From positions 27,621 to 91,620 of the forward strand of contig CAKPEJ010000001.1 of the NCBI GenBank assembly GCA_934149325.1: a DNA stretch of 64,000 bases. The letters run 5' to 3'. This document shows, piece after piece, positions 30,637 through 41,593 of the stretch (within the stretch, counting starts at the first letter, position 1; every line of letters starts with the position of its first letter). The position numbers were made by a program, and so were the translations under genes. The notes beneath the pieces were generated by a model. That model was not told the DNA's origin. It saw only the letters and a program-made list of their open reading frames with translations, and did no database searches. The DNA comes from an uncultured Bacilli bacterium (GTDB lineage Bacteria > Bacillota_I > Bacilli_A > RF39 > UBA660).

Positions 30637-31332
30637 ATGAATAATGTAGTAACAATGGTATCTAGCCAAAAAAATTATATAACAACACTAAATAAAGTAA
30701 ATGAAGTAAATATTTATATTCATATAAAAAGAATTATAGATATACTTTTCTCTTTAACTCTATTAATTTTATTTTGTATTCCTATGCTTATAATATCATT
30801 ACTAATAAAAATAGAAGATGGTGAAACAGTTTTATTTAAACAAAAAAGAACAGGAAAAAATGGTAAAAATATTAATATTTATAAATTTAGAAGTATGATA
30901 GTTGAAAATGATGTAAGAGATTTAAAATGTGAAGATAAATATACTAAAGTAGGTAAATTTATTAGAAAAACGTCACTTGATGAACTTCCTCAAATAATAA
31001 ATATCTTAAAAGGTGAAATGTCATTTATAGGACCAAGACCTTGGATTCCTGAATATTATGAAAATATGAATGTGATGCAAAGAGAAAGAGTAAAAGTTTT
31101 ACCTGGATTAACAGGACTTGCTCAAATAAGTGGAAGAAATGGTATATCAATTAATGAAAAAATAGTTAAAGATTTAGAATATGTAGATAAATTATCATTT
31201 AAAGAAGATTTAAAAATTCTAATTAGAACTTTTACAACTGTTTTTGAAAAAGAAAATGTTAATATTGGAAAAATGGGAATAAATGAGGAAATAGAAACTT
31301 TAAAAAATCAAAATAGTGTTTTTAATCTATAA
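30637..31332 (+). CDS. Initiating polyprenyl-phosphate sugar-1-phosphate transferase (bacterial sugar transferase family, small PglC/WcaJ-C-terminal type)
   Basis: One N-terminal TM helix is followed by the conserved KFRSM...DELPQ...GEMSFIGPRP block. The ATG at 30637 with a GGGGAG RBS is preferred over the listed upstream start. Confidence 0.85.
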   Translation: MNNVVTMVSSQKNYITTLNKVNEVNIYIHIKRIIDILFSLTLLILFCIPMLIISLLIKIEDGETVLFKQKRTGKNGKNINIYKFRSMIVENDVRDLKCEDKYTKVGKFIRKTSLDELPQIINILKGEMSFIGPRPWIPEYYENMNVMQRERVKVLPGLTGLAQISGRNGISINEKIVKDLEYVDKLSFKEDLKILIRTFTTVFEKENVNIGKMGINEEIETLKNQNSVFNL

Positions 31333-31358
31333 TTTATATAAATAAGAGGGGGATTTTT

Positions 31359-32108
31359 ATGAAGGATGATTTAATAAGTATCATCATTCCTGTATATAAT
31401 GCTGAAAAATTTTTAGATGAAACAATTAATACTGTTCTTAATCAAACATATAAAAATTTTGAACTTATTTTGGTTAATGATGGTTCAAAAGATAAAAGTG
31501 TTGGTGTTATAAAGAAGTATAATGATAAAAGAATTAAATTAATTGACAATAAAAATAATAAAGGCGCAGCTTTATCTAGAAATGATGGAATAAGAAAAGC
31601 TAAAGGAAGATATATATGCTTTTTAGATGCTGATGATTTATGGAATAAAGAAAAATTAGAAAAACAAATAAATTTTATTAAAGAAAAAGAATGTGCTTTT
31701 TCATTTACTGGTTATGAATTTGCAAATGAAAATGGTATTCCAAATGGTAAGAAAGTATTTATTCCAAAAAAATTAAATTATAAGAGTGCTTTAAAGAATA
31801 CTACAATATCAACAATTACTGTAATGATTGATACAAAGAAAATGGATAAAGATTTGATATATATGAATAATGTAAAAAGTGAAGATACAGCTACTTGGTG
31901 GAATATATTAAAAAATGGATATGAAGCATTTGGGTTAAATGAAATTTTATCATTTTATAGAAGAAGTGATGGTACTTTATCTTCAAATAAAATAGAAGCA
32001 ATAAGAAGAATATGGAATTTATATAGAAATGTTTTTAAATTAGGTTTCTTTTATAGTTTATATAATTTTGTATTTTATGCTATAAATGCAGTTAAGAGAA
32101 GAATATAA
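31359..32108 (+). CDS. Family 2 glycosyltransferase
   Basis: The motifs ISIIIPVYNAEKFLDETINTVLNQTY and FLDADD are present. Confidence 0.8.
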   Translation: MKDDLISIIIPVYNAEKFLDETINTVLNQTYKNFELILVNDGSKDKSVGVIKKYNDKRIKLIDNKNNKGAALSRNDGIRKAKGRYICFLDADDLWNKEKLEKQINFIKEKECAFSFTGYEFANENGIPNGKKVFIPKKLNYKSALKNTTISTITVMIDTKKMDKDLIYMNNVKSEDTATWWNILKNGYEAFGLNEILSFYRRSDGTLSSNKIEAIRRIWNLYRNVFKLGFFYSLYNFVFYAINAVKRRI

Positions 32109-32120
32109 AGAGGGGTTGTT

Positions 32121-39460: not shown

Positions 39461-39509
39461 GGATTTTGTGTTAATATATGCAACAAATAAAAAAAGGGGG
39501 ATTTTATTT

Positions 39510-40889
39510 ATGGAAGAAATTAATGTAAAGGATTTCTTTAATCTAATTAAAAAAAGAAGTGTTTTGATACTTTTAGTATCAATTATTATAAGTTTAGGAG
39601 TATATTTATATTCTAGTTATATAAAAACTCCAATGTATAAAACATATACAACTCTTGTTCTTACAAAATCACAAGAGGCATCAAGTGAAACAATTACTCA
39701 AAATGATATTGTATTAAATCAAAAATTAGTTTATACATATTCTGAACTTATAAAAAGTAAAAGAGTTTTAAAGCAAGTAAAAGACAATTTAAATTTAAAA
39801 TATAAAACATCTAAATTATCAGATATGATAAGTGTAGAAGCTATAGAAAATACAGAAATATTAAAAATTTCAGTTGAAAGTGAAAATGCTAAAGAGACTA
39901 GTAAAATAGCAAATGAAATTGCTAAAGTCTTTAGCAGAGAAGTAGTTAATATATATGAAATTAACAATGTAAGTATTATAGATAGAGCACTTGTACCAAC
40001 AATAGTTTCAAATAATACAACAATAAGAGATACAGCTTTATCATTTATAGTTAGTATAATTATTACATCTGGAATAATATTTATTTTGTATTATTTTGAT
40101 GATACTGTTAAATTTTCAGAAAAATTAGAAGAAGAGATAAAACTTCCTGTAATAGGAAAAGTATTAAAAGAATCAAGTGATAAGAAAGAGAAAAACAGTA
40201 ATACTATTAAGACTGAATTAATAGTAGATAAATTTCCTAAATCACTTGTTAGTGAAGGAATAAAATCTCTTAGAACTAACTTAAGTTTTTCATCAATAGA
40301 TAGTGAATTAAAAACAATATTAGTTACAAGTTCAATACCTAGTGAAGGTAAAAGTTTTATAAGCGCTAATTTAGCAATCGCATTTGCGCAAACAGGTAAG
40401 AATGTACTTTTAATTGATTGTGATATGAGAAAAGGTAGACAACATAAAGTATTTAATATTTCAAATGAGATAGGTTTTTCAAATTTATTGATAGATGATT
40501 TTGAAAATACATATCAGTCATATATAAAACAAACTGGTATTAAAAAACTTAGTGTATTACCATGTGGAACAATCCCACCAAATCCAAGTGAATTATTAAA
40601 TTCATCTAAAAATAAAAAGTTAATTGAATTATTAAAAGAAAATTATGACTTAATAATATTTGATGGTGTTCCATGTAATGGACTTCCTGATTCTATAATA
40701 ATGTCTACATTAGTTGATAAAACTATAATTGTTAGTGCAGATAGTATTACTCCAAAAGAATTATTAAATAATACAAAAAGATCTTTAGAAAATGTTAATG
40801 CTAATATAGCTGGTGTTATATTAAATAAAGTAAATTTCACTGGTGATAAATATTATGGTAAATATTATTCATATTATGGATCAAAATAA
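39510..40889 (+). CDS. Fused Wzz-type chain-length determinant and BY-family tyrosine protein kinase (CpsC-CpsD / Cap5A-Cap5B-like)
   Basis: An N-terminal Wzz region with two TM helices is followed by a C-terminal P-loop ATPase (SSIPSEGKSFISANLA, DCDMRKG). The C-terminal Tyr cluster is YYGKYYSYYGSK. The ATG at 39510 has a GGGGGA RBS. Confidence 0.8.
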   Translation: MEEINVKDFFNLIKKRSVLILLVSIIISLGVYLYSSYIKTPMYKTYTTLVLTKSQEASSETITQNDIVLNQKLVYTYSELIKSKRVLKQVKDNLNLKYKTSKLSDMISVEAIENTEILKISVESENAKETSKIANEIAKVFSREVVNIYEINNVSIIDRALVPTIVSNNTTIRDTALSFIVSIIITSGIIFILYYFDDTVKFSEKLEEEIKLPVIGKVLKESSDKKEKNSNTIKTELIVDKFPKSLVSEGIKSLRTNLSFSSIDSELKTILVTSSIPSEGKSFISANLAIAFAQTGKNVLLIDCDMRKGRQHKVFNISNEIGFSNLLIDDFENTYQSYIKQTGIKKLSVLPCGTIPPNPSELLNSSKNKKLIELLKENYDLIIFDGVPCNGLPDSIIMSTLVDKTIIVSADSITPKELLNNTKRSLENVNANIAGVILNKVNFTGDKYYGKYYSYYGSK

Positions 40890-41593
40890 TGGTAGATATT
40901 CATTCACATATATTAAATAATATAGATGATGGTAGTAAATCAACCACTGAATCTATCAATATGCTTAAAGGATTATATGAAAATGGTGTTACTGATGTTA
41001 TATTAACACCACATTATGTAATGGATAGTTTTTATCAAAATAGTATTGAAACTAAAGAAAAATTATTTAATAAATTAAAAGAAGAAATAAAAAAAAATAA
41101 TATTCCTATCAACATATATTTAGGTAATGAAATATATATTGATAAAGACATAAAAGACAAAATAAATAAAGAAGCATTACCACTTAATAATAGTAATTAT
41201 ATATTACTTGAATTTCCTATGAATGGAATTTATAATAATTCATATGGCATAATATCTGGGCTTATAGAAAGAGGATATAAAGTTATCCTAGCACACCCAG
41301 AAAGATATATAACTGTAAAGGAAGATATTAAAGTTTTAGATGAATATAAAGAAATGGGAGTACTATTTCAAAGTAATATCGGTAGTTATTTTGGAGATTA
41401 CGGAAAAAATGCAAAAAAGACATTTAAAAAATTGTTAAAAATGAAATATATAAGTTTTATTGGAACTGATTCACATAGTCAAAATTATAATTTTAAAAAT
41501 ATAGAAAAATTTAAGAAAAAATTAAGTAAAGTAGTTGATAAAAATTATTTAAATGATATACTTGAAGGGAATGCAAAAAGAAACTTTATTTAG
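40889..41593 (+). CDS. PHP-family protein-tyrosine phosphatase (CpsB/YwqE-like)
   Basis: The motifs MVDIHSHILNNIDDGS and LTPHY are present. The start overlaps the kinase stop (TAATG). Confidence 0.85.
   Translation: MVDIHSHILNNIDDGSKSTTESINMLKGLYENGVTDVILTPHYVMDSFYQNSIETKEKLFNKLKEEIKKNNIPINIYLGNEIYIDKDIKDKINKEALPLNNSNYILLEFPMNGIYNNSYGIISGLIERGYKVILAHPERYITVKEDIKVLDEYKEMGVLFQSNIGSYFGDYGKNAKKTFKKLLKMKYISFIGTDSHSQNYNFKNIEKFKKKLSKVVDKNYLNDILEGNAKRNFI

Follow-up and report, generated by a model that had tools for sequence, protein, structure and literature searches.

A probable Wzx/Wzy-type wall-polysaccharide locus with a GT11 glycosyltransferase and a TagF-like phosphotransferase in an uncultured gut Bacilli bacterium

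We analysed a 64-kb stretch of DNA (the window) that carries, directly after gmk (29967-30533), a surface-glycan locus of ten tightly packed open reading frames (ORFs) on the + strand. The locus runs from the ATG at 30637 to the stop codon at 41593, with inter-ORF spacing ranging from overlap to 71 nt, and is followed by ruvA, ruvB, queA and tgt. Pfam and NCBIfam together assign every family in the ten-gene order, all with strong scores: an initiating sugar-phosphate transferase, a family 2 glycosyltransferase (GT2), a TagF-like phosphotransferase, a second GT2, a GT11 glycosyltransferase, an EpsG-type Wzy polymerase, a Wzx flippase, an LCP ligase, a fused Wzz/BY-kinase and a PHP phosphatase. 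A preliminary description of this DNA had reported the same gene content, order and position after gmk, and both hold. What the analysis shows directly are the protein families, their folds and motifs, the order of the genes, their conservation among contigs of the species and the reappearance of the module in other genomes. The host is an uncultured Gram-positive-type member of the Bacilli from the human gut, as indicated by the LysM, LCP and SpoVB-like genes of the window and by its gene orders hrcA-grpE-dnaK, ruvA-ruvB-queA-tgt, relA-dtd and hisS-aspS, which we take to be Bacillus-like; its DnaK is 87-92% identical to proteins that carry no NCBI label beyond 'MAG: Bacilli bacterium'. The guanine-plus-cytosine (GC) content is about 20% throughout the window and the positive GC skew is uniform, with no break in composition at the locus.

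The first gene (30637-31332, +) encodes a small, 231-amino-acid (aa) initiating polyprenyl-phosphate sugar-1-phosphate transferase (PGT; PF02397 Bac_transf, E = 1.6e-60), which matches the NCBIfam WcaJ, WbaP and EPS_sugtrans models over its C-terminal catalytic part only. A single hydrophobic segment is present, as are a DE dyad at residues 115-116 (within DELP, 115-118) and a PRP motif at 133-135, and gene callers use its ATG at 30637 on 12 contigs. The adjoining GT2 (31359-32108, +; 249 aa; PF00535, E = 2.2e-40), the candidate for adding the second sugar, has DADD at residues 90-93 and is TuaG-like, TuaG being its best NCBIfam match at 271 bits, under the cut-off of 400. The other GT2 (33325-34383, +; 352 aa; PF00535, E = 2.8e-35) has DSDD at residues 90-93.

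Between the two GT2 genes lies the gene for a TagF/TarF-type cytidine diphosphate (CDP)-alditol phosphotransferase of 400 aa with one catalytic module (32121-33323, +). Membership of PF04464 (Glyphos_transf) is solid, the match reaching E = 1.2e-43 and 149.9 bits against a cut-off of 22.1 over profile positions 5-366 of 367. The protein has a single hydrophobic segment, an N-terminal membrane helix at residues 18-36. Foldseek comparison of its AlphaFold model (mean predicted local distance difference test score, pLDDT, 89) with the PDB gave TagF as the best match (3L7I, E = 3e-16, TM score 0.64), then Cps3D and TarL. A PDB profile search returned the ribitol-phosphate polymerase TarL at the top (E = 1.6e-12), along with Cps3D and TagF, and neither the TarL-first nor the TagF-first ranking tells which alditol is used. 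In the HMMER alignment with 3L7I/3L7J, the catalytic H584 of TagF falls opposite H264, which is part of a PH motif; both H264 and H144, which lies in an HG motif, are invariant among 30 aligned TagF-like homologues. H144-G145 resembles the HG motif of the family, and the alignment to TagF begins at TagF residue 460, short of H444. At 400 aa the single module is about as long as the primases TagB and TarF, and it has matches to the NCBIfam TarF and TarB models. Of more than 4,000 homologues, those nearest to it outside the species share 56-69% identity and are without exception from metagenome-assembled genomes (MAGs).

The 306-aa product of 34390-35310 (+) is a GT11 glycosyltransferase, a putative alpha-1,2-fucosyltransferase, and matches PF01531 (Glyco_transf_11) at E = 2e-45 and 155.7 bits against a cut-off of 23.9, over profile positions 2-295 of 298. 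The signature GRLGNQLFQYA occupies residues 8-18 (nt 34411-34443), and the family motifs appear as GRLGNQ (8-13), SIRRGD (179-184), SDDITW (223-228) and NSTFSFW (265-271), the roles of such motifs being taken from an earlier review (PMC4202792). An alignment of 32 sequences, comprising the window protein and 31 homologues at 45-68% identity, shows invariant GRLGNQ, R181-R182-G183-D184, S223-D224-D225-W228 and S264-N265-S266-F268-S269-W271. Within GT11, to which sequence assigns it, the protein falls in a distinct subclade with S/T-xRRGD where characterised enzymes have HxRRxD. More distant metagenomic GT11 proteins mostly have H at this position, and some have N, G or A. There are more than 3,500 GT11 homologues in all, the closest being 45-68% identical, and two of these close homologues, at 60% identity, carry the NCBI name alpha-1,2-fucosyltransferase, which is an annotation and not an assay. 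No GT11 structure had been solved as of the review (PMC4202792), and none appeared among our listed fold matches or by PDB sequence match; PDB searches with the protein and with its profile gave no meaningful hit. The structure model (pLDDT 95) has as its top PDB folds mostly guanosine diphosphate (GDP)-fucose-dependent fucosyltransferases (AtFUT1, NodZ, POFUT1 and FUT8), with a few other GT-B folds mixed in, at modest TM scores of 0.44-0.48. Separately, the 90%-identity cluster of this 306-aa protein also holds several 352-aa members and a 352-aa representative; 352 aa is the product length of the adjacent GT2 gene, and these entries may be a clustering or gene-calling oddity.

The remaining five genes encode polymerization, export, attachment and control functions. 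The EpsG-type Wzy repeat-unit polymerase (35330-36394, +; 354 aa; PF14897, E = 2.8e-47, 161.9 bits) has at least seven hydrophobic segments. The Wzx-type repeat-unit flippase (36408-37916, +; 502 aa), at 31.5 bits just over the PF01943 Polysacc_synt cut-off of 28.2, has 11 hydrophobic segments and is 58-61% identical to flippases of relatives' loci. Next comes a CpsA-like LCP glycopolymer-peptidoglycan ligase (37979-39460, +; PF03816 LytR_cpsA_psr, E = 1e-36), which scores 104 bits on TIGR00350 (cut-off 62) and 330 bits on NCBIfam Cps2A, below the cut-off of 650; it has three hydrophobic segments at its N terminus, and in the version of the gene callers it begins at 37988 and is 490 aa long. 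The gene at 39468-40889 (+) fuses a CpsC-like Wzz modulator to a CpsD-like BY-kinase (PF02706, E = 5e-13; TIGR01007, 185 bits against a cut-off of 108). Its product (459-473 aa overall; 459 aa from the gene callers' start at 39510) has two hydrophobic segments, a Walker A motif ending in PSEGKS, the Walker A' motif VLLIDCDMR, the Walker B motif LIIFD and a C-terminal tail, KYYGKYYSYYGSK, with six tyrosines. CpsC and CpsD are usually separate proteins in Firmicutes. The same fusion was also seen in two related loci, L104 and L105, described below. A CpsB-type PHP phosphotyrosine phosphatase (40889-41593, +; PF19567 CpsB_CapC, E = 5.5e-63, full length) with DIHSH at its N terminus closes the locus. 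By family, the CpsABCD-type control and attachment set is thus complete (PF03816, PF19567, PF02706 and TIGR01007), and simple hydropathy and motif checks show membrane topologies that fit the assigned roles. We found neither an ABC exporter or synthase gene nor an oligosaccharyltransferase or O-antigen-ligase-like gene in the locus, and its ten ORFs leave no space for more genes.

These ten genes probably make up one pathway of the Wzx/Wzy-dependent kind, whose product would be a heteropolysaccharide linked to the cell wall, be it a capsule or a secondary wall polymer resembling teichoic acid. We infer the order of the reactions, the identity of every sugar and alditol and the site of attachment. 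At the cytoplasmic face the small PGT would load a sugar-1-phosphate onto undecaprenyl phosphate, to which the TuaG-like GT2 would attach a second sugar. The membrane-anchored TagF-like enzyme would then attach one alditol phosphate, most likely glycerol-3-phosphate, from a CDP-alditol, and the second GT2 and the GT11 enzyme would attach two further sugars, that of GT11 being most likely L-fucose from GDP-fucose. Wzx would flip the resulting repeat unit of four sugars and one alditol phosphate. Polymerization would fall to the EpsG-type Wzy, with the fused Wzz/BY-kinase and the CpsB phosphatase governing polymerization and chain length, and the CpsA-like LCP protein would move the polymer onto peptidoglycan. 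As a pathway type, the polyprenyl-phosphate-based, Wzx/Wzy-dependent route with LCP attachment and BY-kinase/phosphatase control proposed in the preliminary description is supported.

Across the species the locus does not vary. On twelve contigs, which include ten from separate human-gut or NCBI samples, the stretch from gmk through the locus has the same gene content and is 98.9-99.99% identical to the window in nucleotide sequence. Because the locus recurs at this level of identity, the ten genes are real and not chance ORFs, and we conclude that, unlike a serotype locus, it is fixed in the population of the species that was sampled. Exact protein matches occur on many human-gut metagenome contigs, from Hadza and other cohorts, and in one NCBI MAG assembly. 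When GTDB representative genomes were scanned with the GT11 protein alone, no relative turned up, and the species is apparently not among them. These data show a species carrying a single, invariant wall-polysaccharide locus and provide a first gene-level picture of the surface glycan of this abundant, uncultured and very AT-rich lineage of gut Bacilli.

Further afield, the module recurs in varied surroundings. We fetched 80 GTDB loci with the TagF-like alignment; in the nearest relatives the order PGT, TuaG-like GT2, TagF-like is kept at 50-72% identity, with the TuaG-like GT2 54-72% identical to its counterparts, and this triad is a conserved core of many MAG loci. The genes that follow the triad are variable in their glycosyltransferases, their Wzy and their accessory enzymes, with GT4, Stealth, PIG-L and pyruvyl transferase among them. 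The chromosomal site varies as well, lying among division and cell-wall genes in L010 and L014, after phosphoglucomutase in L012 and after mutL in L104, so the locus type is not tied to gmk. Locus L104, from a Bacilli MAG, keeps PGT, GT2, TagF-like, GT2, GT11 and EpsG in the same order (53, 58, 61, 46, 60 and 42% identity, respectively), followed by kinase, phosphatase and LCP genes; it differs in an added pyruvyl transferase, an unrelated Wzx and its position. Locus L105, from a MAG labelled Candidatus Saccharibacteria (GCA_964522475.1), shares PGT, GT2, a TagF-like domain and GT11 (51, 54, 50 and 60% identity) but has GT-D, TagF-like and GT4 domains fused in one 1037-aa protein. The pairing of GT11 with a TagF-like enzyme, which had been singled out as distinctive, is therefore not unusual, since it recurs in L104, within a syntenic six-gene block, and in L105. 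Saccharibacteria-labelled MAGs (L023, L024, L029 and L105) contain TagF-like proteins at 50-55%, TuaG-like GT2 proteins at 51-61% and GT11 at 60% identity, which suggests that the glycan module has moved between phyla or that bins carry the wrong label.

No named cultured organism was found to have a near-identical locus: the best match outside the species is 61% aa identity, in MAGs, and that in named cultured genera is 49%, in the Streptococcus mitis group. TagF-like homologues at 48-49% identity occur in Streptococcus mitis, S. oralis and S. infantis (L032-L046, L083). The one streptococcal locus examined in detail, L033 9533-19727 of S. infantis ATCC 700779, places the TagF-like gene next to LicD genes in an apparently uncharacterised polysaccharide cluster, inserted downstream of aro genes and a psr-like ORF, that also has glycosyltransferase-like ORFs and ORFs for membrane proteins; these neighbours were called by reading N-terminal sequences, and the LicD and TagF-like genes by BLAST matches. 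Within 10 kb of the streptococcal TagF-like genes we detected no cytidylyltransferase gene and found no GT11 gene. A full-text search of the available literature returned no described cluster with both a fucosyltransferase and a glycerophosphotransferase.

Several characterised systems share parts of this design. Wzy-dependent cps loci of S. pneumoniae with glycerol phosphate encode the phosphotransferase WchX and an in-locus gct (PMC1391919). Those of serogroups 11, 15, 18, 23 and 28 (cpsABCD, wchX, gct or gtp1-3) have in common with the window locus an initiating phosphotransferase, glycosyltransferases, a glycerol-phosphate transferase, Wzx and Wzy, together with LCP (CpsA), PHP phosphatase (CpsB) and a Wzz-like modulator with BY-kinase (CpsC/D). 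By contrast, the window locus has its regulatory and attachment genes at the 3' end, a fused CpsC-CpsD and a GT11 gene, and is invariant in the sampled strains where pneumococcal loci are serotype-variable; its TagF-like protein is at most 49% identical to streptococcal homologues. The decorations of the Enterococcus faecalis polysaccharide antigen (EPA; ef2164-ef2177) are likewise built by Wzx/Wzy as ribitol-phosphate-containing repeats on undecaprenyl phosphate, with PGT, Wzx, Wzy-like and LCP proteins (PMC7188991). There, however, LicD-family enzymes that use an in-locus TarI homologue are the proposed source of the ribitol phosphate, the product sits on a rhamnan backbone, and GT11 and the BY-kinase module are absent. 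TagF, TagB, TarF, TarL, Cps3D and Bcs3 share the Pfam family, fold and second catalytic histidine of the window enzyme; they act in pathways dependent on ABC transporters and are mostly polymerases, whereas the window enzyme is a single 400-aa module in a Wzx/Wzy locus and only remotely related to them (profile E = 1e-12 to 1e-9; 16-20% identity in structural alignment). Helicobacter pylori FutC and Escherichia coli WbsJ, WbwK and WbiQ share with the window GT11 a full-length PF01531 match, an N-terminal GxLGNQ, a central RRxD and two C-terminal motifs. They differ in having the His of HxRRxD where the window protein has Ser and its subclade S or T, and they belong to Gram-negative lipopolysaccharide loci, usually with gmd and fcl, both of which the window lacks. 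The window locus is thus a new example of a known pathway design and leaves current understanding of polysaccharide assembly unchanged.

A second glycan gene set, spread over both strands at the start of the window (435-8252), bears on precursor supply. It comprises a GT2 gene (435-1394), a Wzx-like gene (1407-2924), a LicD gene (2940-3788, - strand), an extended short-chain dehydrogenase/reductase (SDR) gene (3769-4818, -), an IspD-like cytidylyltransferase gene (4828-5583, -), a gene for a large, 483-aa membrane protein with weak EpsG/GT-C-like matches (5754-7205) and an AglJ-like GT2 gene of the polyprenyl-phosphate-hexose-synthase type (7320-8252). The SDR matches PDB entries 8V4G/8V4H over its full length (E = 2e-58); these represent the CDP-6-D-fructose reductase of Campylobacter jejuni HS:5, an enzyme that produces CDP-glucitol and has the pneumococcal Mnp1/Mnp2 pair as relatives (PMC10918830). 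The cytidylyltransferase passes the NCBIfam ribitol-5-P cytidylyltransferase subfamily model (179 bits against a cut-off of 166), and its best PDB match is a ribitol-5-P cytidylyltransferase. On these two matches, the cytidylyltransferase and reductase look like a CDP-alditol pathway, for glucitol, mannitol, arabinitol or ribitol, with the neighbouring LicD protein as the obvious and likely consumer of the product. On two metagenome contigs (L113 9421-11029 and L120 14516-16245), homologues of the cytidylyltransferase (60-61% identity) and the reductase (38-44%) adjoin GT11-family genes, so the CDP-alditol pair and GT11 genes co-occur elsewhere too.

We also counted neighbours of the GT11 and TagF-like genes. 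Among GT11 loci flanked by 6 kb or more of sequence, gmd- or fcl-like genes lie nearby in 9 of 33 loci of the H type (His in the central motif) and 1 of 9 of the S/T type, a difference that is not significant (Fisher P = 0.42); the calls behind the 9 of 33 rest on BLAST identity and coverage thresholds alone. Avoidance of GDP-fucose genes by S/T-type GT11 was accordingly dropped as evidence for another donor. In the one S/T-type case, L106, an Fcl-like GDP-fucose synthase gene accompanies the S-type GT11; the Fcl-like ORF, re-checked with NCBIfam, scores 423 bits, below the cut-off of 500. A TagF-like gene is nearby in 3 of 9 S/T-type and 1 of 33 H-type loci (P = 0.026), although the numbers are small and the lineages non-independent.

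Several findings weigh against the pathway or against the donors proposed for it. As had been stated before, tagD is missing from the 64-kb window, and tblastn with TagD, Gmd and Fcl probes detected neither tagD nor gmd nor fcl there; these probes, supplemented with homologues from the fetched loci, served for searching only. The related loci L104 and L105 likewise contain no genes for CDP-glycerol or GDP-fucose precursors, and the window locus is without the CDP-glycerol synthesis gene that the pneumococcal loci carry as gct (PMC1391919). Next to TagF-like orthologues, a TagD-like cytidylyltransferase occurs in 3 of 80 loci and an IspD-like one in none (within 10 kb), and the three TagD-like neighbours score 67-107 bits on the NCBIfam glycerol-3-P cytidylyltransferase model, under its cut-off of 165. 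The earlier label of a 'complete' locus accordingly fits the assembly machinery and not precursor supply, for which the locus has no genes. The PDB sequence profile puts a ribitol-phosphate enzyme, TarL, above TagF. In GT11 the His of HxRRxD is replaced by S179 in the window protein, with S in 14 and T in 18 of the 32 aligned sequences; RRGD and the other motifs are intact, so the protein survives, mostly but not cleanly, the refuting test set in the preliminary description, absence of the conserved catalytic motifs. We know of no assayed member of this S/T-type subclade. Finally, promoter and terminator scans in this AT-rich DNA did not yield operon boundaries: over 29400-42800, promoter-like sites were fewer than in shuffled sequence and no terminators were found, a result that is uninformative at about 20% GC.

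The alditol is the first point at which these findings leave room for a different reading. The phosphate-linked substituent could be glycerol or another alditol, because the window lacks tagD but holds a CDP-alditol pair. It is doubtful, though well within reach, that the same pathway operates with a TagF-like enzyme that transfers ribitol, arabinitol, glucitol or mannitol phosphate from the CDP-alditol of the pair 25 kb upstream (3769-5583, - strand). The ribitol-5-P model and PDB matches of the cytidylyltransferase, the full-length similarity of the SDR to an enzyme making CDP-glucitol (PMC10918830), the ribitol-phosphate transferases within PF04464, the top rank of TarL by sequence, the missing tagD and the streptococcal homologues (48-49%) that adjoin LicD genes with no cytidylyltransferase detected within 10 kb all agree with it. 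Against it, the pair sits in a separate gene set with its own LicD and Wzx-like genes, and so with a likely consumer; IspD-like genes accompany none of the 80 TagF-like orthologue loci where TagD-like genes accompany three; and structural ranking places TagF over TarL. The preliminary description had taken TagF to imply glycerol phosphate, which stands as one option only, PF04464 also taking in ribitol-phosphate transferases; the CDP-alditol set at 2940-5583 had escaped it. A more radical departure, in which the polymer is a true poly(alditol phosphate) wall teichoic acid, with the PGT and first GT2 making a linkage unit and the TagF-like enzyme acting as a processive polymerase, strikes us as highly improbable. 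The best structural match is indeed the polymerase TagF, the order PGT, GT2, TagF-like resembles TagO, TagA, TagB/F, and the triad is a conserved core over many loci; however, Wzx and Wzy are present and a TagGH-type ABC exporter is not in the locus, two extra glycosyltransferases and a chain-length/BY-kinase module fit block polymerization of repeat units, and a single 400-aa module has the size of the primases.

The sugar added by GT11 is open to a similar challenge. GT11 includes the colitosyltransferase WbgN. The family also contains an alpha-1,3-fucosyltransferase (PMC4202792), and we consider it rather unlikely, but plausible, that the S/T-xRRGD subclade uses a donor other than GDP-L-fucose, whether another GDP-6-deoxy or 3,6-dideoxy hexose or another nucleotide sugar. 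All 32 aligned sequences have S or T where characterised GT11 enzymes have His, the window has neither gmd nor fcl, and GDP-fucose genes are nearby in one of nine S/T-type against nine of 33 H-type loci. Yet that last difference is not significant, and in L106 an Fcl-like gene accompanies an S-type GT11. No variation occurs in the Arg-Arg-x-Asp core, whose first Arg was reported to be critical in WbsJ (PMC4202792); the nearest solved folds are mostly GDP-fucose enzymes, and two close homologues at 60% identity are named alpha-1,2-fucosyltransferase, by annotation only. The fate of the product could also differ, in that lactic acid bacteria make released exopolysaccharide from loci with Wzx/Wzy and BY-kinase, such as the eps loci of Oenococcus and Pediococcus. 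It nevertheless seems very unlikely that the product here is an exopolysaccharide released from the cell, or a glycan of a protein or S-layer, with no anchoring to peptidoglycan, given the CpsA-like LCP ligase gene within the locus, here and in relatives, and the lack in the locus of an oligosaccharyltransferase or O-antigen-ligase-like gene.

A broader extension of the Wzx/Wzy wall-polymer reading is unlikely, and we offer it as conjecture. The core PGT/TuaG-like GT2/TagF-like module would have spread horizontally among uncultured gut and rumen Bacilli, Clostridia and Saccharibacteria and, with an S/T-type GT11, would use the Wzx/Wzy route to make a teichoic-acid-like wall polymer that is fucosylated and contains alditol phosphate. 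In the present species it would serve as the chief anionic polymer of the wall and, in the human gut, would present Fuc-alpha-1,2-Gal as a host-like, H-antigen-like epitope. Fucose transfer by the S/T-type GT11 subclade, if true, would put a host-like epitope on a gut commensal, and the locus raises the question of which CDP-alditol is used by the widespread 400-aa TagF-like enzymes of Wzx/Wzy loci.

Some further features of the window were noted. Two antisense ORFs within the locus, 34791-35282 and 36350-36616, were taken as chance ORFs of AT-rich DNA. Between cpsB and ruvA, the ORF at 41621-42085 is conserved as a 142-154-aa frame on all strain contigs examined and has no Pfam or NCBIfam match. 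An Rfam scan of the whole window matched nothing. Upstream of gmk, a DUF3419 gene (28657-29493) is full length (273 aa) in most strains, while on two contigs (L095 8704-9105 and L103 8706-9140) the predicted protein is cut short at 133-144 aa; on L103, Lon is split in two. The truncated DUF3419 and the split Lon could be strain-specific pseudogenes or assembly errors. In a sister species with a 92% identical DnaK (L186), hrcA is preceded, as in Bacillus, by gpr, spoIIP, lepA and hemN, and the lineage may be spore-forming; in the window, glycan, uvrC and helix-turn-helix genes take that place. Synteny around dnaK is not kept between the two, and gene order therefore differs between close relatives. 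The gene at 20260-20931 encodes a collagen-like (G-X-Y) protein with a 45-bp tandem repeat of 2.8 copies at 20359-20483; on other contigs the protein is 203 or 218 aa long, one 15-aa unit apart, or is represented by two ORFs, and it looks like a variable surface protein.

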